From a virus, in IMG/VR virus record IMGVR_UViG_3300032893_000017, positions 33,319 to 97,318 of that record: DNA of 64,000 nucleotides; one strand, given 5' to 3'. A program made the position numbers and the translations under genes. Below, piece after piece: positions 1 through 45,883 of the stretch. Within the stretch, counting starts at the first letter, position 1, and every line of letters starts with the position of its first letter. Below the pieces are notes generated by a model, which did no database searches, was not told where the DNA came from, and worked only from the letters and a program-made list of their open reading frames with translations.

Positions 1-1873
1 TAATTTTTGTTCTTAGATTCTGTGCTTCTTTCTTTAAACCTTTTATCTTATCTAGTGCATTATTTTCTATATGTTCTACTTCACTTTCAAAATAGGATTC
101 TATATTATCAATGAATTTTTCATATTTGTTCTTATCTAGTGTATTTCTTAAGTGCATAGCCAATAGATTCATAGACTTCTCTAATCCTATTCCTTCTATA
201 AGTCGCTTGAAGTCCATGTTAATATCTAAGAATTTATTTGTCAGTGCATTTACTTGTCTTGTTCCTGCTTTATTGATAAGTAAGTTTATATTTGCTAAAG
301 AATCTCCATCACTGAGTTTTGATAATACAGTGTATAATGATTCTGAATTATTTTTATAGCTTATTTTATCAAACCGTTTTCCTATTTCCTCTACATCTTC
401 TTTTGAAACTTCTAAGCCTTCTATTTTAATGTTCATTAGGTTCTCATATTTTTCTTTGTTTACTTTTTTATATTCCTTTTCAAATGATTCTTTTTTAGCA
501 AGATTGTCTATATATTGTTTTGTTTTCTTTCTTATTTCACTTTTATTTTCTAATGCTTGTTTGTCTAATCCAGAATTGAATGTTATTTTTATTCCTTCTT
601 CATTATTAAGTTCATTCTTTACATCATTAACAAGTTCCAATCCATAATGATATTCATTTGGGATGTTTACATATAGTTCGTCCTTCTTATCTGTCTGTAC
701 TTCTTTGTAGTTTGCCAGTTTGTTGCAGTCTTTTATTTTACTTTGTTTCTTTCTTCTTAATACTTCTGATAATACTGTTTGTATAGTTTGTTCCTTTTGC
801 TCTTCAGATAGTTTATCATTCTTGTCTAGATTTGTTTTTAATTTTGTAGCAATGGATTCTAGTTCTTTATTTTCCTTTTCTTTGTTTGTTACTTCTTTTA
901 ACACTGCTCTTCTAGAGTCTTTTATTGATTTGTCTATTTCTTTTCTGGTTTCTTTTTTCTTTGTTTTTATCTCTTCTTTAATTCTTACTTTTTCTAATTG
1001 TCTTTCTGTAAGCTGTTTTTCTTCTTTGGGTTTTTCCAATTTGTCTTTCTTAGCATTTACTTTGAAAGTAAGATGTGATTTTGTTTTATCAAATTGAATA
1101 TTATAACCTGCATTTCTAGCTGCTTGAAAGTCTACTGCAAATTTCTCACTACTATATCTTGTAATAGGAATATGTCTTCCTTCAATTGTCACCCATACTG
1201 TTGCCCCTATTGGAATAGAATGAAAGTCTATTCTTCCTTCTGCTGTTAATTTAGGTTTAATAAAAGCTTTCAATAATGTCATTGATCTAGGGTTAAAGGA
1301 TTTCTTTATATTCTCTCTTGCTACATCATCAATCAATTTAAATCCACAAGCACAATTATTTCTCAGCATCTCTAAATAACTCTTGTCAATTATCATTCCT
1401 TCTATATACCATTTGAATATGGTTGCAAACACCTCTTTTATATTGCTGCTTGTATGCTCATTTAAAAATAAATGATTCTTTTCTTTTCTTATTTGTATTC
1501 TCAATTTATCCAGCTTAACTTTTACAATTGTATTGTTGTCTAATCCCCATTTATGAAACATCATGTGACCCAACTCATGTAAGCAGTCTGATCTAAAGTC
1601 TGGAGAGTGTTCATACAATATAATTATATTTTCATCCAACTGTGCTCTGTCTAATTTATTGTCTTCTTTATTCTTGTATAAGTGTATTATTATAGGTTGC
1701 TTTAAATTAAGAAATGATTTTATTTTTGTAAGTAAAGGTTCCAATTCTTGTTTTACTCTGTTACCTTCTTGCCGTTTCCATTCTATATTGTCTATGTGAA
1801 TGTTTTGAGATTTCTGCAATTTATTTTTATTTAATATTTTTATATCTTTTTCTTTCCAAAGAAATTTATTCAT
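1..1873 (-). CDS. Large head-associated polyvalent protein with N-terminal zincin metallopeptidase domain (runs off the window edge)
   Basis: Not in the ORF track. I translated it from ATG 1873 (GAGGT SD, overlapping the upstream stop) and found it open to the window end: MNKFLWKE...CLHELGHMM (1565-1579)...EVFATIF...WVTIEGRHIPI, then a Lys/Glu-rich coiled region. Confidence 0.8.
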   Translation of the reverse strand, partial: MNKFLWKEKDIKILNKNKLQKSQNIHIDNIEWKRQEGNRVKQELEPLLTKIKSFLNLKQPIIIHLYKNKEDNKLDRAQLDENIIILYEHSPDFRSDCLHELGHMMFHKWGLDNNTIVKVKLDKLRIQIRKEKNHLFLNEHTSSNIKEVFATIFKWYIEGMIIDKSYLEMLRNNCACGFKLIDDVARENIKKSFNPRSMTLLKAFIKPKLTAEGRIDFHSIPIGATVWVTIEGRHIPITRYSSEKFAVDFQAARNAGYNIQFDKTKSHLTFKVNAKKDKLEKPKEEKQLTERQLEKVRIKEEIKTKKKETRKEIDKSIKDSRRAVLKEVTNKEKENKELESIATKLKTNLDKNDKLSEEQKEQTIQTVLSEVLRRKKQSKIKDCNKLANYKEVQTDKKDELYVNIPNEYHYGLELVNDVKNELNNEEGIKITFNSGLDKQALENKSEIRKKTKQYIDNLAKKESFEKEYKKVNKEKYENLMNIKIEGLEVSKEDVEEIGKRFDKISYKNNSESLYTVLSKLSDGDSLANINLLINKAGTRQVNALTNKFLDINMDFKRLIEGIGLEKSMNLLAMHLRNTLDKNKYEKFIDNIESYFESEVEHIENNALDKIKGLKKEAQNLRTKI

Positions 1874-4274
1874 TAATTACCTCAACTTCCAATATTGTTC
1901 TTCCTTTTTTACTTTTATATTTTTTTTTAATTTTAAATTTCATTCCATCTATTGCTAAAAATTCCATTTCTATACTATTAAATCCCATTGAAACTATTCC
2001 ACTATCATTTATCCTTCTTAATGCAGGAGCAACTTTACTTCCTTTAGGAAAAGTAATCTCCATTAAAGCCCCATTTTCTGATTCATGTTTTGCAAAAGTA
2101 AAAGCAATAAATTTATCTCCTGTCCAAGAACTAAAAGATGGAGATTGAAAAATATCTCCCTCTTTTAAATCTTCTGTAAATAATTTTCCCATTACTCCTC
2201 TATAAACAATAATATTATTTTTTAGTGGGTTATTATTTATATAATTTCTAATATTTTTTATTTGTTTATCAACAATTTTATTTGTTTCTTCTAAATCTTT
2301 TCCTTTGAATAATTTTCTATCTTTTACATTTAAAAATCTTTCTCTTACATAATCATAAGAATTTCCAGAGTAAGAAGATACGTCTTCTAAAATCTCTTTA
2401 TTTTTAATATAAAATTCATCAATATACTTTTTATAATTTTCATTAACCCATTTATCATAATCTTCTTCAGTTCCTAAAAATACAGGTTCTTTTTTTATTT
2501 CTTTATAAATGTATTCTGCATTCTTGCCTTCACCTATCTTTTTGATATATTTGTGATTTAATCTGCTTGATTTTCTTAATTCTTTCTTCTTAAAATAGAA
2601 CTTCATCTCGTCTTTGAACTTCTTCAATGACATTGGTATTATTCCACCAAACATTTCTTTTGTCATTGTTTTTATGTATTTACTTTCAAATTCCTGTGCT
2701 GTCCCAAATCCTATTCCAAACTTTAATTCATCAAACTTTCCATCTAGCTTTTGAATAAGCATGTAGATTGTACTGTATTGCTTAATAGGTCTATTGATAC
2801 ATACATCTATATCTTCCCCGTCTGGACTGTCTGTGTTTTTGATATATCCATAATCATATTCCATTAAATTTTTATATGGACTGCCTGGATATTCCCTTGT
2901 TTCTCCTTTTCTCCATTCTATAGCAATATCTAATCCTTTGAAGTTTATTGTTTCTTTTGTTGAATCATTTTTTAATAGGTCTAATTTTTTATCTCTAAAA
3001 GACTTCTCTACTTTCCATTCTATTGCATTTATTTCTGGGTTGTATTGCTGAAACTCTGGATGAAACTCAGACCAAAAATGCGTGCAGTGAGGATGGCTGG
3101 GAATTGCTATCCATTTCTTGCCTATTGCATCCTTTCCTACCCATATATAGTATTCTGCAAATTCGTCATTTGCTATATCTGAGTTTCTAGACTTTGGAAC
3201 AAGTAAGCAAACCTTTCCTATCCACTTATTGCATGGCTGATCTGGCTTTTCTTGTTTGTTATATTCACCACTGTATATGAAGTATTTCTTTTCACCTGTT
3301 TTTAAGCTGTCCTGTAACCCTGCTGCTAAATAACCATTGTTCATTGCCATAGATGTTTCTGTTAAGATGATCCTTCTAAGATCCCTTTCATATGCCTGCT
3401 TTGTTTCGTTTGTTAAGTCTTTTCCTAACTCGTCTTCTAAGTCTACATGGTATAATCTACTTATCATTTCTTGTTTTGACAATCCATCTTCCAGCCCACT
3501 TACTATATTTTTTCTTACTATGTCTCTTATCTTTGTATAAGCATCTCCCTGTATTGATAGATACTTCGCTGCATTTTCTTTTGCGAACTTAATTGCTTGT
3601 GATAACTGTTCATTTCTATCTATTTCTTTTTTTATGTAGTTTTTGTCATTTATTCTCTCTCCATACTTGTCTACTATATTGTCATAAGACATTCTTTTCT
3701 GTTCTTCTTTGTCAATTCCTTCTTCATCCATCCATTTTAATAGTAATCCAAATAATCCTGCTCTTACTATTGTTTCATCCTCTAGATCAATATTGTCTTT
3801 AAAGTAGTTTACAACATCTTTATTGAAAGACTCCCACTCTGCATTGGTCATTAACTGTTTTGTCTCTGGGTTGTAGATTACTTTTCCTTTAAATTGAATT
3901 GGTTCTAACTTTTTCTTTTTTCCTATTCCAAAGGATTGAAACTTATCTATTGCTTTTTTATACTTGTCTCTAAGTTCTGTCCACAAGGATTTCATTAGCA
4001 ATGCTTCTTCTGTTATTTCACCTTGACTAGCTTTCAATAAATCATACATTGGAAAAGAATAAGACTTTCTTACTGACGAAGGATCTACTTCCAATTTTAA
4101 ACATAGTCCTATCATTATTCCTTCTGTAAGTTCATGAAGATATTCTAACAATGCTAATTGGTATTCTTGTATAAAACGAAATTGAGAGAATTCATATTCA
4201 TCTAGATTCTTTATTGCCTTCTCTAGAATATCAAAAAAGTTATTATTGTATTTTGTAGGAATTCTTAGTTTCAT
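1866..4274 (-). CDS. MuF/gp7-like minor head protein fused to a pyrophosphatase-like domain and a C-terminal VIP2/Alt-like ADP-ribosyltransferase
   Basis: RRIILTETSMAMNNG and IPSHPHC (MuF); YDYGYIKNTDSPDGEDIDV and DELK (PPase fold); VYRG, SFSSWT, EMEFL (R-S-ExE ART). Confidence 0.8.
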   Translation of the reverse strand: MKLRIPTKYNNNFFDILEKAIKNLDEYEFSQFRFIQEYQLALLEYLHELTEGIMIGLCLKLEVDPSSVRKSYSFPMYDLLKASQGEITEEALLMKSLWTELRDKYKKAIDKFQSFGIGKKKKLEPIQFKGKVIYNPETKQLMTNAEWESFNKDVVNYFKDNIDLEDETIVRAGLFGLLLKWMDEEGIDKEEQKRMSYDNIVDKYGERINDKNYIKKEIDRNEQLSQAIKFAKENAAKYLSIQGDAYTKIRDIVRKNIVSGLEDGLSKQEMISRLYHVDLEDELGKDLTNETKQAYERDLRRIILTETSMAMNNGYLAAGLQDSLKTGEKKYFIYSGEYNKQEKPDQPCNKWIGKVCLLVPKSRNSDIANDEFAEYYIWVGKDAIGKKWIAIPSHPHCTHFWSEFHPEFQQYNPEINAIEWKVEKSFRDKKLDLLKNDSTKETINFKGLDIAIEWRKGETREYPGSPYKNLMEYDYGYIKNTDSPDGEDIDVCINRPIKQYSTIYMLIQKLDGKFDELKFGIGFGTAQEFESKYIKTMTKEMFGGIIPMSLKKFKDEMKFYFKKKELRKSSRLNHKYIKKIGEGKNAEYIYKEIKKEPVFLGTEEDYDKWVNENYKKYIDEFYIKNKEILEDVSSYSGNSYDYVRERFLNVKDRKLFKGKDLEETNKIVDKQIKNIRNYINNNPLKNNIIVYRGVMGKLFTEDLKEGDIFQSPSFSSWTGDKFIAFTFAKHESENGALMEITFPKGSKVAPALRRINDSGIVSMGFNSIEMEFLAIDGMKFKIKKKYKSKKGRTILEVEVINE

Positions 4275-4281
4275 TGCTTTC

Positions 4282-4611
4282 CTAATATTGCATTATTGGT
4301 TGCATTAATCCATGATTTCTCATCCATACTTCCCTGAATTTTTTACTAAACAGTTTTATCCACTTATGATAGATTCCTTCACCTGGATCTGTACCTATTT
4401 TCTTTGCTATAGCTTCCCTGTATTGTTTCATAGCAGTAATTTGGTCTTGCATGAATCGATGGAAGGTTTCCTGATCCATATCTTTTTCTTTATAGATGTA
4501 TCTATTTCCTTCCTTCCTTAGATACTTATGTGATAGTGCTTTTAATAATCCATTATCTTCTAGAGTAAATGACTTAAAGAAATATTCATCGAATAAAAAA
4601 GGTTGATTCAT
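4282..4611 (-). CDS. Small head-module protein carrying the HKY tag
   Basis: YFFKS...LLKALSHKYLRKEGNRYIYKE motif shared with neighbouring genes. Confidence 0.6.
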   Translation of the reverse strand: MNQPFLFDEYFFKSFTLEDNGLLKALSHKYLRKEGNRYIYKEKDMDQETFHRFMQDQITAMKQYREAIAKKIGTDPGEGIYHKWIKLFSKKFREVWMRNHGLMQPIMQY

Positions 4612-4612
4612 T

Positions 4613-7246
4613 CTATTCTCCTTTTTCTATACACTGTAATAATTTATCATAATATTGCTGATCTTTAATTATCCCTTTCTTTACTTTATCTTCTGTGTCC
4701 CATCTTTTTTTTGTTATTTGTTTTCCCAAAACAAGTTCTTTATCTGAAGTAGACTTAAAAACTAAAGACTTTTGCATCTCCTGCTTAAATGCTCTCATAA
4801 ATATATCTTTTAATTTTTCTAAATCACTTTTTGTAAAGTCTGAAAGGCTACCTGTAGGAGCATCTGTTACTCTTACTTCTGTTTTTTTGTTTTTTAGCAA
4901 TACATCATGCAATAGCTGATTCCCAAATCTTGCTACCATTTCAGAATCATCCGCGTAATATTTACTATTACTGCTGCTTAAAAACTTTTGATAAGACTTT
5001 GTTTTCTTAACTTCTTTTACAAAAAGAACACGATCTTGATTCCAGATAGGGTTGCCGTCTTTATATCCTAATACTCTTTCTGTGTAGAACAAATGATGAA
5101 AGTATTCGTGAACAAAAGAATTCTTGAATTTAGATCCTATTGTTATACTTTTATTTGAGGGACTGTAAAAAGCTCGTGCTACCTTATTATAAGAAATCTG
5201 TGCATAATCTTTTTGAAAAGATATTGATAAATTAGTGTGATTTGCAAAACCTAAATCTTTTAAAAGTTCTAATTGATACATAATATTACACCATGCTTTT
5301 TTATTTTCAGGTGTAATATTATTTTGGATGCTTACTTTGAAGTTCTTATTAGCATAATCATACATTTCCTCTATTTTCATTTTCTCAAATTTTTTTATAG
5401 AAATCATTTTTTCAATATTCTCTAGAGTTTCATTTTCTTTCTTATCTGTCTCTTCATAAATATATTTTGCATTCTTGCCTTCACCTATCTTTTTAATATA
5501 CTTATGATTTATCTTTGATTTAAAGAATACTATTTGAGTTCCAATTGACTTAATTAGTATATCTATCTTTTCCATAATTGCATTTATTGGTTGATCACTC
5601 TTAATCATTTCTGAATACTTGCTTCCTATTTCTTTTATCTTTTTGAGTATTTTATGCACCATTACTGGAGATATTTTTATTGCTGTTGCTATTTCTTTTC
5701 CTGTTTGCTTCTTTGTTAAAAGATCTACTACTTTCTTTTCATTCTTTGTTTTTAATTCTGATTTTATTTTACTTAAAAAGTCTTTTACGTTTTTAGTTCT
5801 TTCCTTCTGTTCTTGTTCATACTGTTCATTTGTTTTGTATTCCTTTGATATTAAATCTATTTTATCAATATCACTTTCTACATTCTCGTCTAATGCAGGT
5901 GTATTAAGAATCTTTTCAAAACGTTTGTCTAGAATGTTGTCTCTGTCCACTCCCTGTATACCTACATACTCTCCAGTTTTAGGGTCTTTTATTTCTCCAT
6001 GCTTCATATATCCTTTTATGTAAGTGTATAAGTAAGTAGAAAAAGTATTTGGAGGATATTTTTTAAGATTGAAATTTCTTATTGCATGTATCATTCCCAA
6101 ATTGCCATTTTGATATGCATCCTCTACATCTATCTTTCCCGTTTCATAATCCATAAGAAGATTTTTATTACGCTGAATTACTGCTGTGATATATTTTTGA
6201 TTCTCTACAATAAAATTAGCTCTTGTTGCCCTATCTTCTTTTAACGTATTTATTTGTTCTGCTGATATATTGCCTATATTTATTCCTGTTCTAAGTGTAT
6301 ATGATTTTCCTTCCTTTGTTATTCCTTCTACTATCTTTCCACTTTCATCTCTATACCAATATCTGTAATTTCCTTTACCTCCCTGTCTACGAATGTATTT
6401 ATGTCCAGATTTCATTATTCCAGTAATATTTTTGATAAGATTGAAAAATCCTAGTTTAATTGACTTTGCCATCTCCAAAGCATGTTGTTTTACTACAAAC
6501 TCTTTTCCTGCTTCGTCTACTAATTTTACTATCCCGTCTTTTATTTCTTTTATTGTAGCAACTAATCCTCTTCCTTGGTGTTGATGAATACCTTCTTTTG
6601 ATTTTGCATCTGGTTTGATTCTAACTTTTGCTCCTATTTTAATTTCTGGTTTTTGTTCCCCGTCTTTCTTTTGTGTTGTTTTCTTTTCTGCATACTGTTT
6701 TGCTTTTTCATAGTCATTTGTGATTTTTGTTTTGCCATCCCAATAGAAACCATCTTTGAATTCCAATCCTTCTATTCGTTTGGGTTCTTGTTTAGCCTTA
6801 GGCTGGTCACCTTTAGCTTCTTCATAAATATATTTATCACCTTCCTTACGAAGATATTTATGAGACATTATATTTTTAAAAAAGACTAAATTAACTTTTT
6901 TTTTTAAGTCTGTTAAAGATTTTAAGAAGCCTATTATTACATTTGGTTTAGATTTTTTTGTTAGTCCTGCTTCTGAAAGTGCAATCGCAATAGCCTGCTT
7001 TCTATTCGTAACTTTATCACCACTTCCAGACCTTAGTTTCTTTCTTTTAAATTCCCCCATGACAACATGCACCTTGTCTTGTTTGTTTTTTAGCTTTTTT
7101 CTTTTCTTAGCTCCAGCACCTAATTTATCTGGGTGCTTGTATGCTTCTTCTACTGTCATTTTTTCTGCAGCATCTACAATATACTTTGGAAGTGCTTCCT
7201 GTTCGTTTCCTATTTTGGATTTAATTAAAAAAACTAATTTCGTCAT
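4613..7246 (-). CDS. Multidomain protein: DUF6496-like, KOW/SH3-like, sigma-70 regions 2 and 4, zincin peptidase
   Basis: KVHVVMGEFK..LRSGSG..VTNRKQAIAIALSEAG; IKIGAKVRI; VEDAYQNGNLGMIHAIRNF..FSTYLYTYIKG and TGKEIATAIKISPVMVHKI; FVHEYFHH..SEMVAR. Confidence 0.75.
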   Translation of the reverse strand: MTKLVFLIKSKIGNEQEALPKYIVDAAEKMTVEEAYKHPDKLGAGAKKRKKLKNKQDKVHVVMGEFKRKKLRSGSGDKVTNRKQAIAIALSEAGLTKKSKPNVIIGFLKSLTDLKKKVNLVFFKNIMSHKYLRKEGDKYIYEEAKGDQPKAKQEPKRIEGLEFKDGFYWDGKTKITNDYEKAKQYAEKKTTQKKDGEQKPEIKIGAKVRIKPDAKSKEGIHQHQGRGLVATIKEIKDGIVKLVDEAGKEFVVKQHALEMAKSIKLGFFNLIKNITGIMKSGHKYIRRQGGKGNYRYWYRDESGKIVEGITKEGKSYTLRTGINIGNISAEQINTLKEDRATRANFIVENQKYITAVIQRNKNLLMDYETGKIDVEDAYQNGNLGMIHAIRNFNLKKYPPNTFSTYLYTYIKGYMKHGEIKDPKTGEYVGIQGVDRDNILDKRFEKILNTPALDENVESDIDKIDLISKEYKTNEQYEQEQKERTKNVKDFLSKIKSELKTKNEKKVVDLLTKKQTGKEIATAIKISPVMVHKILKKIKEIGSKYSEMIKSDQPINAIMEKIDILIKSIGTQIVFFKSKINHKYIKKIGEGKNAKYIYEETDKKENETLENIEKMISIKKFEKMKIEEMYDYANKNFKVSIQNNITPENKKAWCNIMYQLELLKDLGFANHTNLSISFQKDYAQISYNKVARAFYSPSNKSITIGSKFKNSFVHEYFHHLFYTERVLGYKDGNPIWNQDRVLFVKEVKKTKSYQKFLSSSNSKYYADDSEMVARFGNQLLHDVLLKNKKTEVRVTDAPTGSLSDFTKSDLEKLKDIFMRAFKQEMQKSLVFKSTSDKELVLGKQITKKRWDTEDKVKKGIIKDQQYYDKLLQCIEKGE

Positions 7247-7258
7247 ATTGTTTTATCC

Positions 7259-7459
7259 TTAATTTATTTTTTCTGGTTCTTCTACTATCTCTTTAATTAG
7301 CACTTGGTTACGAATTAAATTATCTTCTATAATTGTTACTACACTAAATCTACAATTATATTTTTTCATCAATTCGTTTACCTTTTCGCAGCATTCCTTT
7401 GCATTAGGTTCTGCTGCTTCTTTGTTTTCTTTTGGATCTATGACCTGCATTTCATCCAT
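7259..7459 (-). CDS. Hypothetical protein
   Basis: ORF with AAGGAG SD, coupled to neighbours. Confidence 0.55.
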   Translation of the reverse strand: MDEMQVIDPKENKEAAEPNAKECCEKVNELMKKYNCRFSVVTIIEDNLIRNQVLIKEIVEEPEKIN

Positions 7460-7664
7460 GGTTTATCTCCTTGTCTTTCATATTTGAACTACAAGAAGGA
7501 CAATAGTTGTGCCATAAGTTATTTATCTTTTTGGCTGTCCATCCCTGCTTTTTTAGTTCCCTCATTAAAAAATTCCAATTGTTATCTGCCCAAATTTCTT
7601 TCCTGCATCCACAGTTATTGTCACAGATTATTTCATAATCGCCATCTCCAATATTTGTTATCAT
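7452..7664 (-). CDS. Small Cys-rich (zinc-ribbon-like) phage protein
   Basis: ICDNNC...KKQGW...HNYCPSC. Confidence 0.6.
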   Translation of the reverse strand: MITNIGDGDYEIICDNNCGCRKEIWADNNWNFLMRELKKQGWTAKKINNLWHNYCPSCSSNMKDKEINHG

Positions 7665-7673
7665 TTAACACTC

Positions 7674-7949
7674 CTATATTAAATGTTTAGTTACTTCTAG
7701 AAGTAAAGTTTCTATTTCTTCTGTTGTCTTTAATGAAAATACTTCTCTATACCAATACTTGCTCTCTACTGGAATATATGTCAATGTCAACAGATATCCA
7801 TTGCTTATCATTTCTAAGGTAAAACTGAACCAGTTTATTTTGATACTATCGTCTTTAAATACTTTTATTCCCATCTCCTCTATCATTTTTCTGTGCTTAG
7901 CTGGTATTTGTATTGGTTCTGGTTTTACTTCTATTTTCTTCTTTTCCAT
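7674..7949 (-). CDS. Hypothetical protein
   Basis: ORF in operon with AAGGA SD. Confidence 0.55.
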   Translation of the reverse strand: MEKKKIEVKPEPIQIPAKHRKMIEEMGIKVFKDDSIKINWFSFTLEMISNGYLLTLTYIPVESKYWYREVFSLKTTEEIETLLLEVTKHLI

Positions 7950-7958
7950 TGTAGTTCC

Positions 7959-8378
7959 TTAAAGCTTTAAAATGTTTTTTGTCTTTAGTATGATATATAT
8001 TTTCTCTTTTGCATTTGATTTGTCATGTGCTGGTTCATACTGTAATCCTTTTTCCATCATCTCATCTACTGCTTCAGTTGTCTCATGCAATAGAACATGA
8101 TAGTAAGTAACTGTTTGTAAGTTGTTGTCTATCCATACTTCATATTCTGGGATATATTTCTTTGCCATCCAGTTTCCAGCTTCATCAAAGTCCATATCAT
8201 GGTTTCTTTTTACATAAGTTCCATTTACTGTAAAGACTTTTATCTTTACTTTTTTGTAGACAAGTGTTCCTATAAAGAGTTTTTGTAAACTCCCATCCAT
8301 TTTTTCTTCATTGAATTTTTCTATGATATCTACTAGAGTTTTGAAGTCTTGCGCATCTTGTTTTAAATTATCTTCCAT
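7959..8378 (-). CDS. Putative zincin-like protein (HExxE variant)
   Basis: EVWID...LLHETTE...YEPAH. Confidence 0.5.
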   Translation of the reverse strand: MEDNLKQDAQDFKTLVDIIEKFNEEKMDGSLQKLFIGTLVYKKVKIKVFTVNGTYVKRNHDMDFDEAGNWMAKKYIPEYEVWIDNNLQTVTYYHVLLHETTEAVDEMMEKGLQYEPAHDKSNAKEKIYIILKTKNILKL

Positions 8379-8482
8379 TATTTTATCCTACTAGTAAAGA
8401 TCTGTTTTTGAATTCTTCTATTATGGCCTTGCAGAAAAGTATTTTTACATTCTTGACCACAATTACAGGCGCATAAGTTCAT
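8378..8482 (-). CDS. 34-aa CxCxCG..GHN mini-protein (not in ORF track)
   Basis: MNLCACNCGQECKNTFLQGHNRRIQKQIFTSRIK; AAGGA SD; TAATG overlap with the next gene. Confidence 0.55.
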   Translation of the reverse strand: MNLCACNCGQECKNTFLQGHNRRIQKQIFTSRIK

Positions 8483-8494
8483 ATAATTTCCTTC

Positions 8495-10072
8495 TTATAT
8501 TATAATAGTAATATATTCCTTTTTACTTTTTTCTAATTCTTCCTCATTTATTTCAAATTGAGGTTCTTCATTTTCTTCTTTTTTATCATTTCCAAATTGC
8601 TCTTGCTGGCTTTGTTGTTGGGACATTTGATCTTGTTGTATCTTCATCTGGCGTGCTTGTAGAAAAGTAGGGTCTAATATTATCTTTCCTTCTCCATCTG
8701 GAAGAGGAGGAAGATCTTTTTCTGCCCGTAATTCATCAATAAGTAAATAACTTTTTACTCGTTTATCGTCGATTGCAACTTCCTCAGTCTGATTCCTTGC
8801 TTCTAGTCCAGCAGGTTCTATAATGAATTTGTCCCATTCTTTATCTTTGTTTTGCTTTGCTAATACTTTATTATATACTTCACATAGATTTGACATTATA
8901 TATTTCAATCCACGATCATGACTAAATGCTATCTTCTTGTCTGCATTTTCATTCATAACATTTTGTGACTGTACTAGCCTTATTCCTAATTCTTGACTGT
9001 CTGTTCCATGTATTGCAAATATCCAACTTGCTAGCATCTGTATATATTGATTGAATTCCATGTCCCTGTTTGATGGAGCTATGCTTTGCCACTTTGCATT
9101 GTACTGCAAGAATGGAGTCTTCCACATTCCTTTTATCCCTCTAAACATGGATATCCATTCTCTTTGCAGTTCTTCTAAATCTTTTCTATCTAAATTCTGT
9201 CCATCAAATGTTAATATCCCTTTTGGCTGGCTTGAAGTATTAAAGAACTCTTTATTGTATGACATTCCAAATAGCCAGCTTGTTATTATGTCTATACACA
9301 TTTCTATAAAGCTGTATCCGTAATCTCTTTTCCTTATGTCTGCTCTCATATTTGAACAGTAAAATACCATTTCCTCTTCTGTAAATGTTTCTGTTATCTT
9401 ACTGTCTATCTCCTGAACATACTTTATTTCTTTATCACCCAGGTATCCTGTCTTCTTAACTGTCTTCTTTATTGTAGTTCCGTCTAACAGCCAGTAGTCT
9501 ATCATTTCTCCTTTTCTGTTTCTTCTAGGTGTAATTGCTACTTGATCTATTGTAAGTATTTCCCTTACCATCATCTCATTCATTCCAACTAAATGATCTT
9601 TCCTTTCTTCTGCTTCTGGAAAATCTATATAACCACTATATAGGATAAACTGTCCTATCTCTTCTGCTATTTTTTGTTCTTTCTTGTCTGGGGTTCTTTT
9701 TCTGTCTTTTAGTTTTACTACAAATCCTAATTCATCGTCGTTGTATGATATTCTTGCTGCATTTCTTATTTGCATACTTCTCAAGTTGTGAATAGATGCT
9801 ATAGGACCTACTTTCTGTGCTATGTCTCTTAATACTTCAAAACTTAAATTGAAGAATCTTTCTCTTATTCCTCTGGCATTGATGCTCCATCTAAAGAATG
9901 TTGGATCTGGTTCATAAATTCCCTGTGGTGGATTTATACTTCCTCCAGACTTAGACTTTCTTAGTATCTCTGTGTCTATACTTTTTTTGAATTCTTCTAA
10001 ATCCCTGTCTATATCTATTGGAGTTGGTTCTAAATAGTCTTTTAATTTGTTTAATTCGGAAAGGTTAGCCAT
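8495..10072 (-). CDS. Portal protein
   Basis: ILTIDQ..RNRKG..LDGTTI, YGYSFIE, YN..FF....PKGIL, W...F.G....K.P, RDMEF, DELRAEKDLPPLPDG; head-module context. Confidence 0.9.
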   Translation of the reverse strand: MANLSELNKLKDYLEPTPIDIDRDLEEFKKSIDTEILRKSKSGGSINPPQGIYEPDPTFFRWSINARGIRERFFNLSFEVLRDIAQKVGPIASIHNLRSMQIRNAARISYNDDELGFVVKLKDRKRTPDKKEQKIAEEIGQFILYSGYIDFPEAEERKDHLVGMNEMMVREILTIDQVAITPRRNRKGEMIDYWLLDGTTIKKTVKKTGYLGDKEIKYVQEIDSKITETFTEEEMVFYCSNMRADIRKRDYGYSFIEMCIDIITSWLFGMSYNKEFFNTSSQPKGILTFDGQNLDRKDLEELQREWISMFRGIKGMWKTPFLQYNAKWQSIAPSNRDMEFNQYIQMLASWIFAIHGTDSQELGIRLVQSQNVMNENADKKIAFSHDRGLKYIMSNLCEVYNKVLAKQNKDKEWDKFIIEPAGLEARNQTEEVAIDDKRVKSYLLIDELRAEKDLPPLPDGEGKIILDPTFLQARQMKIQQDQMSQQQSQQEQFGNDKKEENEEPQFEINEEELEKSKKEYITIII

Positions 10073-10108
10073 ATTTTATCCTCAAGGTTTGGACTTTAAT
10101 ATGACTAC

Positions 10109-10137
10109 ATTATAATATTTTTTTGATTGATTGTAAA
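10109..10137 (-). promoter_or_regulatory. Sigma70-like promoter upstream of portal
   Basis: TTTACA-N17-TATAAT on the minus strand. Confidence 0.6.
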
Positions 10138-10154
10138 TTAATATTTATAGATAA

Positions 10155-10790
10155 TTATTTCTTTTTGTCATCTATTACTCCAAAATATTTTAATAATCTT
10201 TCCACTATATTAAAATCATGTCCTGCTAAAACAGTTCTGGTATCCAATTTTTTATTTCCAAAAATTCTTTTCAGCCATTCAATTATATCATCATCTGGCT
10301 TTTGTGATTTCAATTTTTCTATTTCTTCAGCCTTTTCTTTTATTTCTTTTCTTAACTTCTTTCTATCATCAAAATATTCTCTTGATAAAGTTCTAATTGT
10401 ATCATAATTACAGTCCATTTGATTTTCAAACAAGTCTCTTTCTTTAATTATCTGTTCTATTGCTGATTCATAATTATCAACTGTCAAATTATAAATATCT
10501 ATACACATGTCATTATAATTTTCGTTTATTTTTTCAGCTTCTTTTCTTGCTTTATCCAGCATTTTTTCGCCTTTGCTTTTTTCTTTCCTATTATGAATTT
10601 CATCATAATCCTTTTTTAATTGCTCGTCTATTTCTGCTTTTGGTGGAATATAATCATTATATGAAGGGTGCATCAAATTTAAATTATTTAGCACTTCAAT
10701 TATTTCATTGATTTTATCCCATATTATAGCAAATTTTTCGATATTCCCTGGTCTTTTTCTATCATCTAATCTTTCAATCTGCTTGCTCAT
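10155..10790 (-). CDS. Hypothetical coiled-coil protein
   Basis: 211-aa ORF with SD. Confidence 0.55.
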   Translation of the reverse strand: MSKQIERLDDRKRPGNIEKFAIIWDKINEIIEVLNNLNLMHPSYNDYIPPKAEIDEQLKKDYDEIHNRKEKSKGEKMLDKARKEAEKINENYNDMCIDIYNLTVDNYESAIEQIIKERDLFENQMDCNYDTIRTLSREYFDDRKKLRKEIKEKAEEIEKLKSQKPDDDIIEWLKRIFGNKKLDTRTVLAGHDFNIVERLLKYFGVIDDKKK

Positions 10791-13142
10791 TTTTTATCTC
10801 CTTTATTTCTTTTATCATCTCATCTATTAACATAATACATCTTCCGTAGCCTTTTATTAACATATTATTACTTCCATAAGCGTGATCTATTAACTTTTTC
10901 TTATCTGCTAATATCCTTCTTTTAAGTTCTACAAGTATTGCTTTATCTGGAATTGAATTTCTAATCATTTGTATTCCTTTATTTAGTAAATCAATTTCTT
11001 CATTATATTTCTTATTAAAATTCATCTGTCATTTTATTTCCCTTCTAAATAATATTCTCTTTCATTAATCTGTGTACTATTACATTGTCTAATAAAAGAA
11101 TATTTAATTACACCTTTAACAAAGTATTTCTCTATATTCATTTCTTCATAAACTTGTTTGTCAATGTAGATCTTACTTGGGTTTTCCCAATCTTCTTTTT
11201 CTTTTATCTTTAAAAGCTTATTGTTCTTGTCTATCTTACAGTTATCAGCTATAAAGTAATATGCTTCTGGATAATCGTTTCTGTAATATCTGTATCCATC
11301 AAAAACATCTTCACATCGAGTTGTATAATATCCACTTCTACCTTTATATCCAGAAACATAAACTGGATAGCATTCTTGATGGTAATGATTCCTTTTTTCA
11401 TACTCTACCTTTTGTTTTTCTATTCCTTTCTTAATAATAAAATACCCATTGTAACAATTTAAAAATAATACTGTCATTAAAATTAAAATTAGTCTTTTCA
11501 TTTATTTACATCCTTTAATTTCTCAATTTCTTCTTCTTGTTTATCAAGGCACTCGTTACATATTCTTACACTCCAAACTTTTCCATTTATTTCTCTAAAT
11601 ACATCCCAGCCACTATCATTATCTTTATTGAATAATACATTACAATCAAAACATTTATTTAATTTCCATCTATTAGGTAATTTTAATTCTTCTGAAGATA
11701 AACCATATTTCAAATTATTTATAAACTTAATCAATTTATTATAAATCCTTTTCATAATTCCTCCATTTTTATTTTACAGCTTTCACATATCCCTTCTAAG
11801 TATTCATTGTTTTTTAATTCTCTTCCACAACTTTCACATCTTATCTCTTCGTAATTTTTCATGTCTTTCCCTTTTCCCACTTGTTTATTATTTATTATAT
11901 AACTTATTTACTTTACTTGTTCTTTTATTTCTCGTTCTAATTTTGCTCTCCTTTCGTCTGTAAGTATATAGGATTCATTTAATCTTATTTTACTCATATT
12001 CAGCATTCCACATTTATAACATTTTAATTTTGTCTGAGAATCGTCTATTTTTATTTCTTTAAAAAAGATATACTTTTCTGATGTGTTTGTCATTATTCTA
12101 AAAGGTATTGTATCTATTGTTATTGTATCTAATGCTTTCCATTTGATTCTTAATGAATCTTCCATTGCTAAATCTTTTGTTTCCCTGCTTATTTTAATTT
12201 GAGATGTCTTGCTGATTAAAATCATTTCTTTATCCCCTGTTCTTTCTGTATTTCAATGTCTATTTCGGATAAAATCCAATTTAATTCTTCTAGTTTTTCA
12301 GAATTATTACAAAACATAAGACCATCATGATATTTTGATCTTTCTTTAGTATCTTTATTTATTTCCTTTTTTCTATTTTCAATTTTTTCTTTTAAATTTT
12401 CAAGTGCTGTCATAGTATTATTATATTTATCTTTCCAGTAACAAACATCACATAACCTATCATCCTTGTCTATATTAATAGCATAACTTCCACATTTACA
12501 TACACTCTTCATTTATCTTCCTCCATGATGTTTCTCTTTTTACTATTTCATCTATTTTCTTTTTAACTTCATCTTTATTGAAAACATTTTCTACTGCTTT
12601 TCTCACAGCCTCATCAAAATGCTTTATATCACAGTAATGCTTAAATAGACTATTATCAAAATCCTTATTACATATTTCACAAATACCTTTATATCTTGTT
12701 AATATTTTGTCTTCTTTTTCTATTCTTTCTATTAGATTATAATAGTCTTTATTTGTCATCAATTTTATCCTCCTCTAAAGGAATAATTCCTAATATTACT
12801 ATCTCAATTGATTCGCGTAAATATCTTTCACTAAGAAGTGTTTTTTACATTCTTTTTCTAACCACTTCAATTCTGAAACCGTTTTTATAGAAGATATAGA
12901 CAATAATAAACTATTTATCCCTCCAACACCTTCTGAAAAACTTTTCCATATTTATTCCAGTCCGTTTTAGAATTTAACATCACATTAGTTATAATTTCTA
13001 ATCTTACTAAACCATTTATTTCTGCTTCCTTTTGTGTATCATATTGAAAATCATCATATATTCTTTTATCCTTTTCTTCTGTTGTTATTGCATAACTAAA
13101 TCTATGTCCGACTTTTATTATTTCTAATTTAATTACTTCCAT
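10774..13142 (-). other. Run of small hypothetical accessory genes (10774-11025, 11498-11755, 11908-12225, 12222-12512, 12496-12762, 12915-13142), several Cys-rich
   Basis: Tightly coupled short minus-strand ORFs; CxxC pairs in several. Confidence 0.5.
11034..11501 (-). CDS. Putative lipoprotein
   Basis: MKR + hydrophobic stretch + LNC lipobox-like motif. Confidence 0.5.
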   Translation of the reverse strand: MKRLILILMTVLFLNCYNGYFIIKKGIEKQKVEYEKRNHYHQECYPVYVSGYKGRSGYYTTRCEDVFDGYRYYRNDYPEAYYFIADNCKIDKNNKLLKIKEKEDWENPSKIYIDKQVYEEMNIEKYFVKGVIKYSFIRQCNSTQINEREYYLEGK

Positions 13143-17327: not shown

Positions 17328-17640
17328 AATATTTCTTAATATTTAATAATTTATTTTTTAGAGTAACTACTTTTAATTCTAATTGATCTCCGGAATCTTT
17401 ATACACTTCTTTCAATATCATTTCACTTTTATTTTTAGCATCTAATATCTCTGTATCTGACATCTTTTTCATCTCTTCTGGACTTTTATAAAATGCTCCT
17501 AACATCATTCCAGTTATAGATAGCATTCTAAACTTTCTAGCTGATTCAATACCTTCCAAACCTTCCATCAACAAATCAAAATCTTCTTTAGTAAAATTTA
17601 AATCACCTGCCATATTAAAGTCCTTTTTTATTCCATACAA
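17320..17640 (-). CDS. Hypothetical protein
   Basis: ORF between ParM-like and ParR-like genes. Confidence 0.5.
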   Translation of the reverse strand: MYGIKKDFNMAGDLNFTKEDFDLLMEGLEGIESARKFRMLSITGMMLGAFYKSPEEMKKMSDTEILDAKNKSEMILKEVYKDSGDQLELKVVTLKNKLLNIKKYFG

Positions 17641-18664
17641 ACTTTCTCATAAGCAATTTTATTATTCCTCTAGCATTACTAAAAACTGGATCCTCAATTA
17701 CTTCTAGAGTAGAAAAAAGCTTTTTCATTGTTTCTCCAAACAAATAAGTTCCACCACCTGTATACAAAATCTTATCAGGAGTATAATCTCCAAAATCTTC
17801 CATTATCTTATTTTTCAAATTCTCTAATATCTTTACCAAGGCATCTTGAACAAGATAACTTAAATCTATATTCACTCCATTCTTATTTATTGATTTATTG
17901 TGCTGGATTATATCTTCTATCTCTAAAGTTGTTTTTTTTATATTGTATTGTCTATATAATTGCTCTTTAACATATTTATAGAATTTTTCTGTTCCTACTT
18001 CATAAGCATAGTTCTTAAGAATTCCTAATTGATTTATCAATAATGTATTTGTTGTCTTTCTCCCTGTTCCAACAATTAAGTATTGCAATTTTACTTTCTC
18101 TTTAATGATATCAAACTTATTGTCTATACAGCTATCCATTAGTGATACCCACTCTTGGTACCATATACCTACTTTTACTATTTCAAATTTCTTTGTTGAA
18201 ACTATTTTTCCAGCAGTATTATAAAAATCAACTGTCCATTTCTTTTTAAGTATATTTCTTATTTCTTCTTCTTTATGTATATTATCTGCTGTTAGATCTA
18301 ACCCTACTATTATTTCTTCATTCTCGTCTTTAACAAATCTAGCAACAGAAATTAAAGTATAATTTATACTATGCTCCAGATATACTTCATCTACAGTAGC
18401 ATATTGAATTTCTTCTGGAGGAAATAATTTATCACAACTTTCTCCATAAGCAATTGGTCTTCCTTTATTTATTGCTGCTATTATATCATCGTCTTTTATC
18501 CAATTTAATGTTGGTGAATATTTTAAGTATCTAAAATCCACATTTGCATATTTAGCATCAAATCTTTTTCTTTCTAATTTATCATTCAAATTTTTGCTCT
18601 TACAATTCTCATTATAATAAATAGATTTTATTCCATCTCGACCACAGTCTACAGCAATTAACAT
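17615..18664 (-). CDS. ParM/StbA-family actin-like ATPase
   Basis: IAVDCGRDGIK (phosphate 1), VGTGRKTTN (phosphate 2), YTGGGT, PVFSNARG. Confidence 0.8.
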   Translation of the reverse strand: MLIAVDCGRDGIKSIYYNENCKSKNLNDKLERKRFDAKYANVDFRYLKYSPTLNWIKDDDIIAAINKGRPIAYGESCDKLFPPEEIQYATVDEVYLEHSINYTLISVARFVKDENEEIIVGLDLTADNIHKEEEIRNILKKKWTVDFYNTAGKIVSTKKFEIVKVGIWYQEWVSLMDSCIDNKFDIIKEKVKLQYLIVGTGRKTTNTLLINQLGILKNYAYEVGTEKFYKYVKEQLYRQYNIKKTTLEIEDIIQHNKSINKNGVNIDLSYLVQDALVKILENLKNKIMEDFGDYTPDKILYTGGGTYLFGETMKKLFSTLEVIEDPVFSNARGIIKLLMRKFVWNKKGL

Positions 18665-19408: not shown

Positions 19409-19440
19409 ATTATATAACCTTTATTAACAATTTGTAACAA
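19409..19440 (-). promoter_or_regulatory. Phage promoter motif TTGTTACA-N16-TATATAAT (copy 1)
   Basis: One of five intergenic copies with identical spacing. Confidence 0.75.
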
Positions 19441-28659: not shown

Positions 28660-28691
28660 ATTATATACTCTTTTATAAGATTTTGTAACAA
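28660..28691 (-). promoter_or_regulatory. Phage promoter motif TTGTTACA-N16-TATATAAT (copy 2)
   Basis: Intergenic, upstream of the SSB gene. Confidence 0.75.
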
Positions 28692-31653: not shown

Positions 31654-31934
31654 TGATCTTTCATTTTATTTAACCAATCTATATAATCCTTAGCTCTTTT
31701 CAATTCTTGTAAAATATCACTTCTAAAATCAATTTCTCTTTCATATATTACATTCTTAGTATCTTTATTTCTAATTTCTAAATGTTCAAAATAAGCAGTT
31801 TCTTTATTCCAAATAGATTCTTGCAAAACAAGAATTATTGTATATCCTTTATATTCTTCTTTTGAAATTTCTTTCTCAGAACAGCAAGTTATTAAAAAAA
31901 GAAACATTAAAAATATTATCATAACTCTCCTCAT
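31650..31934 (-). CDS. Putative lipoprotein
   Basis: MRR + hydrophobic stretch + TCC. Confidence 0.45.
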   Translation of the reverse strand: MRRVMIIFLMFLFLITCCSEKEISKEEYKGYTIILVLQESIWNKETAYFEHLEIRNKDTKNVIYEREIDFRSDILQELKRAKDYIDWLNKMKDQ

Positions 31935-33958
31935 TAATTTACCTCCACTATTCTGCTTATGCCTTTTTTATCTTTCTCTACAATTATTTGATTGATAAAA
32001 CTGTCCTTGATACTTGTATGACTAATTATAAATATTTGTTGAAAATAATTTTTTAGATAGTTTATTACTCTTATCAATTTCTCTGAGTTCCATTCATCAA
32101 TGGCAGAAAATATTTCATCTAGTACAATAAAATTAAATCTTACTTTATTTAACTTACTTAACAATTGACTTAATGACATTCTTATTGCAAAGTTAATTAT
32201 ACTTCTTTCCCCTCCACTAAAAGATTTATATCCTCTCCTTCCATTTTTTGTATTAACAAATATTTCCAAAGTATCCCTAAGATCAGCATTTTTATTTTTT
32301 AATTCTTTTAAAGTCTCAAATTCTATCTCAAATTCATTTCCCAAAATATCCTTTAAAATACTATTTGCATTATCCTGTATCTCTTCTATACTTTGTTTTA
32401 TTAACTGTGCTACTATTCCATTTTTTCCAAATACTTCTTTAAGAACTGAATAATTATTAACTTCTTCTCGCAGTTTTTTTGTTTCTGTTTCATATCCATC
32501 TTTTTCTTTTACTGTTTTTTCAAATATCTTCAATTGATTATTTTTCTCAGATAAAAAATATACTAAATCTTCTATTTGCTTTTCCATTTTCTCAATCAAC
32601 TTTTTATAATCTTTCAAATTGTCTATGTTATATTTATCTCCTTCTTTTTCTAGTTCTTTGATTTTCTCATTCAATACAGATATCTTTGTTCGTATCTTTT
32701 CTATAAAAGACTGAATATTTAATTTCTTCTCAATTAAAATATCTATTGAATTATTATCCTGTTCAGATTTTTTTAACAATTCTTTTTTCTCTTTATACTG
32801 TTTTCTTAGATCATCCAATTTAATTTCATGACTAATTATTACATTATTATTTTCCTGTAAAGAAGTTTCTAAAAATTCTATAGAAGCATGTATTTTATTG
32901 ATCAATTTACTCTTTTTATTTTTATCTTTTAAATCAGCTTCACAAGTAGGGCAAGTATCATTCTTAGATAAAGTCTCTATTCTTTCATTGTCCATTGATA
33001 TTCTACTTTTCAAATTAGCTGATGCAATTTTCAATTCATTTATTTTTTCCTTTAGTAATTCTCCTTTTGTTCTTATTTCTTCAACATCATCTTCACTGAA
33101 GTCTAACTCTATTTTCTTGGGTACTCTTATCTCTTTATCATTTGTCTGATATTGCTTTAATTCTTCTTTGTTGTCCTTTAATTGAGTTTCTAAATCATTT
33201 ATCTTGTCTAATATTCTGTTGTAATTAACTAATACCTCTCTTTCTTCTTTCTGTTTGTTTTTCAATTCAGATAGTTCTTCTTTAGATTTAACTAATCTTT
33301 TATTATTAGCTTCTATCTCTTTCTCAATACTTTTTACATCTATATCTTTTAACTTATTTTCTAAAAATGATTTTTTAGTTTCTGTGGAATCTAATTGAGT
33401 TTGTATTTGTTTCAGTTCTTTATTTACTTCTTCATAACAATTATCATATAAACCCAGATTTAATATATCTTTTAAATATGTCTTTCTGTCTGTGGGTGTT
33501 GCTGAGGAAAATGTATCCTGTTCAAACTGTTGAAAAAATATTGTAGCAATAAATATATAGTAATTTACTCCAATCTTTTTTTCGATCATCTCTTGAGTCT
33601 CATTTTTCCCTTCTGATTTATCTATTCCATTTATTCCAAAATATAAATATCCACCTTTGTTGTTTTTCCCCCTTGTTATTCTTATTGTTTCGTCTCCTAT
33701 CTCAAATAGCCAGCTTACTTCTACTATCTCTTCTCCTTGCATAAGAACATCTTCTTTTGATGTCTTACCAAATATACAATAAGTTAAAGACTCAAATATA
33801 GTTGATTTTCCAGTACCATTACTTCTTGCCCAATTATTAACAAATCTTCCTATAATAGAGGTTACAGATAATTTTCTGAAATCTATTTTTTGTCCTTGAT
33901 AAGACATAAAATTCTTTAATTCACATTCTAATAATTTCATATTCTTTCCTATATACAC
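31934..33958 (-). CDS. sbcC: SbcC/Rad50-like ATPase
   Basis: NFMSY, SNGTGKST, CPTC zinc hook, FSGGE, LDE, ISH. Confidence 0.9.
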   Translation of the reverse strand: MYIGKNMKLLECELKNFMSYQGQKIDFRKLSVTSIIGRFVNNWARSNGTGKSTIFESLTYCIFGKTSKEDVLMQGEEIVEVSWLFEIGDETIRITRGKNNKGGYLYFGINGIDKSEGKNETQEMIEKKIGVNYYIFIATIFFQQFEQDTFSSATPTDRKTYLKDILNLGLYDNCYEEVNKELKQIQTQLDSTETKKSFLENKLKDIDVKSIEKEIEANNKRLVKSKEELSELKNKQKEEREVLVNYNRILDKINDLETQLKDNKEELKQYQTNDKEIRVPKKIELDFSEDDVEEIRTKGELLKEKINELKIASANLKSRISMDNERIETLSKNDTCPTCEADLKDKNKKSKLINKIHASIEFLETSLQENNNVIISHEIKLDDLRKQYKEKKELLKKSEQDNNSIDILIEKKLNIQSFIEKIRTKISVLNEKIKELEKEGDKYNIDNLKDYKKLIEKMEKQIEDLVYFLSEKNNQLKIFEKTVKEKDGYETETKKLREEVNNYSVLKEVFGKNGIVAQLIKQSIEEIQDNANSILKDILGNEFEIEFETLKELKNKNADLRDTLEIFVNTKNGRRGYKSFSGGERSIINFAIRMSLSQLLSKLNKVRFNFIVLDEIFSAIDEWNSEKLIRVINYLKNYFQQIFIISHTSIKDSFINQIIVEKDKKGISRIVEVN

Positions 33959-37581: not shown

Positions 37582-37613
37582 ATTATATAACCTTTATCAT
37601 GATTTTGTAACAA
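37582..37613 (-). promoter_or_regulatory. Phage promoter motif TTGTTACA-N16-TATATAAT (copy 3)
   Basis: Intergenic, upstream of the nucleotidyltransferase. Confidence 0.75.
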
Positions 37614-45882: not shown

Positions 45883-45883
45883 T

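Follow-up and report, generated by a model that had tools for sequence, protein, structure and literature searches.

Three ways are known in which phages that enter a cell take over its transcription. They rely on the host sigma factor, inject an RNA polymerase as N4 does, or inject enzymes such as Alt of T4, by which the host polymerase is modified. For T4, the sections of PMC9026906 on head cargo describe a 10-residue capsid-targeting sequence (CTS) on the internal proteins IPI–III and on Alt, which the protease gp21 cuts at L/I-x-E. The scaffold is cut many times, the gp21 motif studs both the scaffold and the protease too, and Alt, trimmed at both ends, modifies host RNA polymerase after injection (PMC9026906). 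A second described class is that of the polyvalent proteins, for which Iyer, Burroughs, Anand, de Souza and Aravind (2017, PMC5512222) predict that they accompany the DNA into the host and 'jump-start transcription'. The stock of phage-type polyvalent proteins includes InPase, ADP-ribosyltransferase (ART), MuF, SNF2 and LPD domains (PMC5512222).

Here we analyze an 877-aa protein, P0001, encoded in a 64,000-nucleotide stretch of viral DNA (the window) that corresponds to bases 33319–97318 of IMG/VR record IMGVR_UViG_3300032893_000017, a complete virus record of 97,318 bp. A sequence-only reading of the window had placed sigma-70 regions 2 and 4 inside a head-module protein, in a span (5600–6420) that equals aa 276–549 of P0001, and had proposed that a sigma carried in the virion could redirect the host polymerase right after injection. 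The embedding is borne out: the sigma module lies within P0001, downstream of the portal gene. The reading that we favor, with a probability of about 0.55, is that P0001 is T4-style capsid cargo, from which the sigma factor is cut out as a tagged 31-kDa piece, injected, and used to redirect host RNA polymerase.

Region 2 of the sigma module was recognized by two profile libraries, as had been claimed from sequence. Pfam Sigma70_r2 matched aa 361–415 with 25.1 bits and E 1.5e-5, over a gathering cut-off of 24, and scored 29.7 bits on the module in a six-frame scan of the genome. The NCBIfam model of the sigma70-ECF (extracytoplasmic function) superfamily, TIGR02937, covered aa 344–539 with profile positions 5–159 of 165 (54.4 bits, cut-off 42.9, E 1.1e-14). 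The helix-turn-helix at aa 505–541, taken earlier for region 4, is reached by the TIGR02937 match. It aligns with region 4 of sigma-F (1l0o_C), and is 32% identical over 47 aa (E 0.011) to region 4 of a free-standing sigma encoded elsewhere in this phage. No Pfam region-4 model reached threshold on P0001, with HTH_11 at E 0.06 only. The top sequence match among solved structures was again sigma-F 1l0o_C, with regions 2 and 4 collinear and the FSTY of region 2.3 conserved. Subfamily hidden Markov models (HMMs) placed SigF, SigB/F/G and FliA on top, at 24–30 bits against cut-offs of 190–320. No sigma-3 domain was detected in the module. The strings said to flank the module were also found, GIMKS-GHKY at aa 275–284 and EMIKS at aa 546–550.

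The predicted fold matches that of sigma factors. In an AlphaFold2 model of P0001 aa 300–560, for which a 13-row alignment was used, a disordered linker (model residues 130–174) separates two helical domains; the mean predicted local distance difference test score (pLDDT) is 69. All Foldseek matches listed are sigma-containing entries (best E 2.2e-3, probability 0.99); their global TM-scores are low because the two sigma domains move freely. In VIA-align, each of the best 30 rows was a sigma factor, a sigma domain or a transcription complex that includes a sigma. These included SigB (8x6g_H, Z 9.5), RpoS region 1.2–2 (5h6x_B, Z 8.5, root-mean-square deviation 3.6 over 95 residues) and sigma-H region 4 (3mzy_A, Z 9.2, deviation 3.9 over 74 residues), and further sigma-4 domains followed at Z 8.1 (4cxf_A) and Z 7.9. 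We conclude that P0001 holds a genuine, divergent two-domain (sigma-2 plus sigma-4) module of the sigma-70 family.

The sigma-2 segment was co-folded with residues 215–345 of B. subtilis beta' in three runs, alongside three controls. The median ipSAE was 0.78, a value attained by 116 of 157 solved complexes, as against 2 of 215 mismatched pairs, and the best control gave 0.00. The runs had at least 88% of contacts in common, with a partner pLDDT of at least 80. In the predicted interface, the region 2.2 helix, including a Gln that is invariant in the family, lies against the clamp helices of beta' (260–287). Co-folding with core RNA polymerase had been suggested as a check on the sequence-only reading. 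Because the pair is a textbook one and the host a stand-in, the pass denotes likeness to solved complexes, not binding. Judged from the model, the core-binding surface of the sigma module looks intact.

These results bear on an alternative in which the module is packaged but no longer an initiation factor, acting instead as a decoy for host core polymerase or anti-sigma, or as a DNA-binding internal head protein. Such a role would be consistent with the strong divergence of the module (the best of 16 matches among 1.84 billion representatives has E 8.6e-9), with its marginal Pfam scores, and with the fact that no promoter can be assigned to it. Yet sigma-2 and sigma-4 are kept throughout the family, with the Gln and Gly of region 2.2 invariant, the FSTY of region 2.3 aligns with sigma-F, and region 2.2 is predicted to dock on the beta' clamp helices. 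We regard a decoy or plain DNA binder as improbable.

What surrounds the module would fit processing in the head. We counted the motif [LIVMF].KS (h-x-K-S below) in 112 minus-strand open reading frames (ORFs), and only three exceeded all 300 shuffles: a 255-aa ORF in the scaffold position (8 sites against 0.85 expected), P0001 (10 against 2.11), and a 322-aa ORF just upstream of the scaffold-position ORF (5 against 0.70). Among all 400 h-x-X-Y pairs, KS ranked first in the scaffold and the presumed protease (13 versus 1.08) and, independently, first in P0001 (10 versus 1.64). The P0001 sites start at aa 7, 107, 259, 277, 547, 564, 574, 804, 824 and 829. All ten spare the DUF6496 and sigma matches, and the longest site-free stretch of the protein, aa 281–546, encloses the entire sigma module. 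Cutting after each predicted site would yield a piece of 270 aa and 31.3 kDa (aa 281–550) that begins with a GHKY tag and has the whole module inside. The free-standing sigma, scanned likewise, has zero h-x-K-S sites and zero tags. Because the sigma is bracketed by a motif that fills the scaffold and the probable head protease, the phage probably packages and injects a promoter-recognition subunit.

The 322-aa ORF, at genome 22164–23132, probably encodes an HK97-type prohead protease. In the ESM Atlas, 17 of the 30 feature matches listed fall in Peptidase_S78 clusters, and rows 4–9 of the predicted-structure matches agree. GIY-YIG homing-endonuclease-like ORFs occur twice, at genome 23116–24000 (L004 7117–8001) and at window 54455–55288, and one such ORF lies directly upstream of the probable protease gene.

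Other proteases could be considered for the cuts. In Firmicutes and Fusobacteria, the propeptide of ribosomal protein L27 is cut by the cysteine protease Prp (PMC9405229), and a leader with KLVFF before KS might mimic it; alternatively, P0001 could be processed by its own LPD1/HExxH module, zincin peptidases having been proposed as processors of polyvalent proteins (PMC5512222). The leader does resemble the L27 motif MLxx(D/N)LQ(F/L)F'A(S/H)KK and the start of F. nucleatum L27 (PMC9405229), host Prp is reported to cleave capsid and scaffold proteins of phage 80alpha (PMC5744158), and the nearest deposited relatives of this phage's portal belong to Firmicutes myoviruses, at 26–30% identity. However, Lys rather than Ala follows FF, the LQ of the L27 motif is absent, FF is missing from most sites (MAKS, IMKS, MIKS, LIKS, MQKS), and the phage has no Prp gene. 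The scaffold and the probable prohead protease are both rich in the same K-S motif, an observation in favor of the phage's own head protease. Processing by Prp or by the LPD1-like module thus seems very unlikely. As L27-type Prp substrates in the strict sense, the leaders were rejected, having FF then K-S, no LQ and no Ala at P1' of the motif given in PMC9405229.

A second recurrent element is a tag of ~30 residues (HKYIKR.G..Y.Y) that heads each large module of P0001. The pattern H[KR]Y..[RK].{4,12}Y.[YW] has six copies in the genome against 0.014 expected (500 shuffles). Three are in P0001, and one each in the neighboring proteins P0002 and P0003 and in an 80-aa paralog of P0003 in the tail-gene region. 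The tag of P0002 and that of P0001 junction 3 share a 70-nt direct repeat with 86% identity (2491–2560 and 5442–5511), which points to a recent duplication among the cargo genes, or to gene conversion. Junction 2 was modeled by AlphaFold2 as a three-stranded beta meander (core pLDDT 73–76, overall 59.6). The modeled tag had no meaningful match in the Protein Data Bank (PDB), where the best Z was 2.7, and no Pfam family covers it. A WW-like fold is unsupported by the same comparison.

Searched alone, the tag retrieved seven unrelated viral contigs from IMG/VR, five of which have a portal homolog (27–31% identity) 0–2.3 kb off. From this sequence evidence, the tag may be a widespread head-cargo address. 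In L005, L007, L008, L010 and L011, the tag takes the form K-Y-I-K-R-T-G-x-P-G-N-Y-K-Y-x-Y, in unrelated viral proteins that are partly of high G+C.

Relatives of the sigma module carry similar elements. An exhaustive phmmer search of the representatives with aa 300–560 (E up to 1e-3) gave the 16 proteins, 12 of which match Sigma70_r2 at E up to 0.01. Twelve of the 16 were kept for an alignment (A1); P0010, P0017 and P0018 (ordinary cellular-type sigmas by look) and a fragment, P0013, were dropped. The relatives are mostly 230–265 aa long. Some start with MKLxFFxKS and then the tag (P0008, P0016, P0011, P0014), others with an interchangeable second tag, P-[IV]-G-T...G-K-W (P0004–7, P0012, P0019); other free-standing leaders of the P0001 type read MKLVFFKS and similar. 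Just past sigma-4, the 13-row alignment shows an almost invariant K-S, and sigma-2 and sigma-4 are both conserved.

Two relatives are fusions like P0001. The protein of L020, 47% identical over aa 280–602, has the order tag, sigma, DUF5661 and, C-terminally, DUF6496; KLVFKS precedes each of its modules, and the same string opens a free-standing 73-aa DUF5661 gene of L012 (MKLIFKS). P0011 is the third fusion, with the order tag, beta domain, tag, sigma. The free-standing leader is retained at internal fusion junctions, which argues for a signal rather than a mere translation start.

Related-locus searches in IMG/VR with P0001 and P0011 gave no relatives, a word-indexed protein search returned P0001 itself only, and profile searches gave 1 and 4 matches, none new. 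With a degenerate DNA pattern for region 2.2, loci of relatives were located, 3 in IMG/VR and 22 in metagenome contigs; nine of these 22 hold family members scoring >90 bits with a local HMM. In all four lineages with upstream DNA (G000, L012/L013/L021, L014/L024 and L033; L019, L020 and L036 end too early), a portal gene 47–50% identical to this phage's lies directly upstream of the sigma gene. Downstream are MuF and InPase genes. The h-x-K-S motif is enriched, with 0 of 300 shuffles reaching the count in each case, in the sigma (5 versus 1.09) and MuF protein (5 versus 0.81) of L014, the MuF protein of L020 (6 versus 1.42) and the portal of L033 (4 versus 0.64). We tentatively suggest, at slightly less than even odds, that in a clade of uncultured 90–120-kb myoviruses, and perhaps in many other phages, a processed sigma is loaded into the capsid by way of leader, beta-meander tag and protease trimming, and is then injected. 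L033 also has three tandem paralogs between its portal and sigma genes (2023–3945), each with a leader and the second tag in the pattern MxQPFLNDxDFFKS...P[IV]GT..KG.KK.AEGKW; one of them has a weak PPPDE/C97 peptidase match (22.7 bits, below cut-off).

By its sequence, P0001 is a phage-type polyvalent protein, with several unrelated modules in an architecture that is shuffled in relatives. Pfam has no match for the beta-rich module (aa 144–258) or the LPD1-like module (aa 612–839), and PHROGs holds no family for P0001. For the LPD1-like module, 24 of the 30 ESM Atlas feature matches listed lie in LPD1 clusters (score 0.96), structure TM-scores are 0.61–0.63, one row is IrrE-N-like, and HEYFH can be read at aa 713–717 (nt 5096–5110). 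Transcription runs from the portal gene through four small ORFs to P0001, P0003, P0002 and the SNF2-helicase protein; MuF, InPase, ART and SNF2 are all present in the head-gene neighborhood of P0001. Pfam scores for P0002 are 77.1 bits for InPase, 21.8 for ADPrib_exo_Tox (below the cut-off of 23.4) and 16.8 for Phage_Mu_F (below 29.6). The SNF2-helicase ORF continues past the left edge of the window, its full extent being genome 31457–35191. Because the pattern of leader, tag and motif is like that of T4 head cargo, we read P0001 as a cargo polyprotein. Coordinates are collected in Table 1.

Table 1. Features of the window discussed in the text (window coordinates unless stated otherwise; P0001 modules in order of translation)
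Feature	Position	Strand	Evidence or remark
Portal protein	8495-10072	-	Pfam Phage_portal 68.1 bits; PHROG portal families; upstream of cargo genes
P0001, 877-aa polyvalent head-module protein	4613-7246	-	ORF list, translation
N-terminal leader MTKLVFLIKS (10 residues, with the first h-x-K-S site at its end)	7217-7246	-	Candidate capsid-targeting propeptide
DUF6496 module, aa 53-93	6968-7090	-	Pfam PF20106 34.7 bits, cut-off 24
Tag copy 1 (HKYLRKEGDKYIY), aa 129-141	6824-6862	-	
Small beta-rich module of unassigned function, aa 144-258	6473-6817	-	Homologous to P0011 module (alignment)
Junction 2: h-x-K-S sites MAKS, IMKS, then tag copy 2 (HKYIRRQGGKGNYRYWY)	6353-6472	-	
Sigma-70-family module, aa 344-539: sigma-2, disordered linker, sigma-4	5630-6217	-	TIGR02937, AlphaFold2 model, fold matches
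Sigma region 2, aa 361-415	6002-6166	-	Pfam Sigma70_r2
Sigma region 4 helix-turn-helix, aa 505-541	5624-5734	-	
Junction 3: sites MIKS, LIKS, FFKS, then tag copy 3	5456-5608	-	
LPD1-like/zincin-like module, aa 612-839	4730-5413	-	ESM Atlas look-alikes; HExxH
P0003, 109-aa protein: leader, tag, short tail	4282-4611	-	80-aa paralog at genome 18087-18329
P0002, 802-aa MuF-like/InPase/ADP-ribosyltransferase-like protein, one tag copy (aa 574)	1866-4274	-	
SNF2-helicase protein, N-terminal ~620 residues of 1244 aa	2-1873	-	Pfam SNF2-rel_dom 72.8 bits
Free-standing ECF-like sigma, replication module	48482-49027	-	Without leader, tag or h-x-K-S site
Promoter-like element, copies 1-5	19409-19440, 28660-28691, 37582-37613, 48444-48475, 56380-56411	-	
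TGT/DpdA-like ORF	42440-43639		
Radical-SAM SPASM ORF	44649-45593		
GTP cyclohydrolase I	45884-46810		236.8 bits
QueE-like radical SAM ORF	46765-47349		
PTPS/QueD	47666-48046		

The mechanism that we propose runs as follows. P0001 would be expressed late and, as a polyvalent protein, serve as capsid cargo. Its leader, its tag or both would load it into the procapsid, as the CTS does for the internal proteins and Alt in T4. The prohead protease would then cut at h-x-K-S sites, releasing the tagged sigma (aa 281–550) together with DUF6496, beta-domain and peptidase-like pieces, and these pieces would be ejected with the DNA. In the new host, the sigma piece would attach to core RNA polymerase, its region 2.2 on the beta' clamp helices, and would steer the enzyme to phage promoters as soon as infection begins, beside the ART, InPase and SNF2 proteins.

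Several points weigh against this proposal. We infer packaging, cleavage, ejection and promoter specificity from sequence patterns, a fold and an in-silico interface. The Sigma70_r2 score is only just over its cut-off, with no Pfam region-4 model passing. The partner in the co-fold came from a stand-in host, and many structures of this type of pair have been solved. The major capsid protein, when scanned, had zero h-x-K-S sites. The protease assignment comes from language-model and predicted-structure look-alikes only, and neither the Pfam Peptidase_S78 HMM nor a PDB sequence search found anything on the 322-aa ORF. In some relatives the motif turns up within the folded sigma core as well, for example as 'KKS' in P0005, P0006 and P0016, so four residues alone are insufficient to define a cut site. 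Its enrichment is weak in L012/L021, where the 3 sites of the sigma (1.25 expected) were reached by 35 of 300 shuffles. Finally, none of 50,697 deposited phages gave a tblastn match to P0001, and neither the portal alignment nor the tag pattern found anything among one genome per species for 185,579 species.

Some of these points would favor a simpler scenario. A sigma gene in a late operon could act in the same cycle unpackaged, for example in positive feedback on late promoters, and the shared motifs would then be linker features with no packaging role. Same-cycle phage sigmas are the known norm, as with gp36 of phiEco32/SU10 (PMC4281155); the evidence for packaging of P0001 is indirect; and the motif is present in the sigma cores of relatives and missing from the major capsid protein. 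However, a switch for late genes encoded in the portal operon itself would arrive too late, and an untagged sigma is already present in the replication module. KS is the top h-x-X-Y motif in the scaffold and protease and, independently, in P0001, the N-terminal leader is kept at internal junctions after fusion, and the sigma has, as fusion partners or neighbors, domains of the kind found in injected polyvalent proteins. We therefore consider a late in-cell sigma unlikely and continue to favor capsid loading and injection. Proteomics of an SU10 virion preparation, as reported in PMC4281155, recorded that phage's ECF sigma by one peptide among 'middle gene products', which we do not count as evidence of packaging.

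The second sigma named by the sequence-only reading is genuine, though weaker than the embedded module by the same models. Sigma70_r2 gave 24.0 bits, equal to the cut-off, and TIGR02937 34.1 bits (below 42.9; E 1.9e-8); phrog_1740, 'RNA polymerase sigma factor', matched at E 4e-6. The five-copy motif TTGTTACA-N16-TATATAAT, offered by that reading as a possible target of the packaged sigma, does exist. The pattern TTGTTACA-N(14-18)-TATAAT matches five times, always on the minus strand (0.02 expected from 100 shuffles), and the genome contains no further full copies. The copies are nearly identical over 32–34 bp on the coding strand, with TTACAA, a 17-bp spacer and TATAAT, and each contains a conserved near-palindromic TTGTTACAA. 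The element reads as a near-consensus promoter of the primary-sigma type. Copies precede replication, nucleotide-metabolism and post-terminase genes, one lying just after the terminase gene. Conservation extends past both hexamers and therefore hints at an added regulator site. The element could be read equally by a host sigma or by the free-standing phage sigma. A consensus promoter and terminator scan of window 1–13000 was at shuffle level, with 74 sites against 70.3 expected.

The phage itself is, from its gene content, a myovirus, with tail sheath, baseplate wedge, major head protein and large terminase. The record has 127-bp direct terminal repeats, and G+C is 25–35%. The window has 71 listed ORFs of 100 aa or more; 65 are read from the minus strand, and the remaining six, on the plus strand, overlap longer ORFs of the minus strand. 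The portal search of deposited phages matched 779 records, including 343 Staphylococcus and 243 Bacillus phages. The window has no tRNA genes, and Pfam and PHROG scans of the ORFs submitted revealed no phage RNA polymerase.

Several other features of the genome were seen in passing. The gene set at 42440–48046 suggests 7-deazaguanine DNA modification. A single 855-aa ORF (38829–41396) combines a family A DNA polymerase with an N-terminal domain of the uracil-DNA-glycosylase superfamily. A class-3 lipase ORF (33949–34650, 84.2 bits) sits between Rad50-like (31934–33958) and Mre11-like (34832–35944) genes, and a 349-aa actin-like (ParM/MreB-like) ORF, with scores below Pfam cut-offs, is found at 17615–18664 between the terminase and portal regions. 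A 694-aa ORF near the right end (61514–63598) and a 255-aa ORF at the left end (genome 3–767) have similar N-termini and look like paralogous fiber-like proteins flanking the terminal repeat.

If capsid loading and injection of the sigma are real, a promoter-recognition subunit would arrive with the phage genome itself, a third mode of immediate-early start beside host-sigma promoters and virion RNA polymerases. Among ways of takeover at entry it would be a cheap fourth, one that would change the search for 'early' promoters of uncultured phages. The HKYIKR.G..Y.Y tag, which unrelated viral contigs have near portals, would likewise serve as a general address for head cargo, and tag plus leader could be a portable address for loading foreign proteins into the capsids of this phage group. 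We found no published description of a packaged or injected phage sigma, the supplementary domain tables of PMC5512222 being outside the search; literature queries for a packaged or injected sigma returned reovirus sigma proteins only. Polyvalent and CTS-type cargo are already known; new here are a sigma factor as probable payload of such cargo, the putative cut motif and the tag.

Compared with group 3/4 sigmas (SigF/SigB/SigG, FliA and ECF), the P0001 module has the same sigma-2 and sigma-4 joined by a linker, with matching folds. It differs in being embedded in an 877-aa protein, in scoring far under the subfamily cut-offs, and in its conserved surroundings, an N-terminal leader plus tag and a C-terminal K-S then helix. 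With polyvalent proteins P0001 shares a multi-module build, shuffled order and a MuF/InPase/ART/SNF2 head neighborhood and, going by Atlas look-alikes, probably an LPD1-like/HExxH module. The words 'sigma' and 'HKY' each occur 0 times in the main text of PMC5512222, which also gives no description of the junction motifs or the tag. The transcription module described there is an N4-type virion RNA polymerase, whereas that of P0001 is a sigma that needs host core polymerase.

The likeness to T4 cargo lies in the motif pattern: the P0001 leader ends in a motif common to the scaffold and the probable prohead protease. Here, however, that motif is h-x-K-S rather than L/I-x-E, and the probable protease is of the HK97 type. 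The proposed P0001 cargo is strung together as a polyprotein, with an extra beta-meander tag after the leader, and its payload is a sigma factor, whereas Alt is an enzyme that modifies RNA polymerase. With the virion RNA polymerase of N4, P0001 shares the proposed purpose, transcription of phage DNA on entry by means of a capsid-borne protein. Unlike N4, this phage would carry only a 31-kDa specificity subunit and no polymerase.

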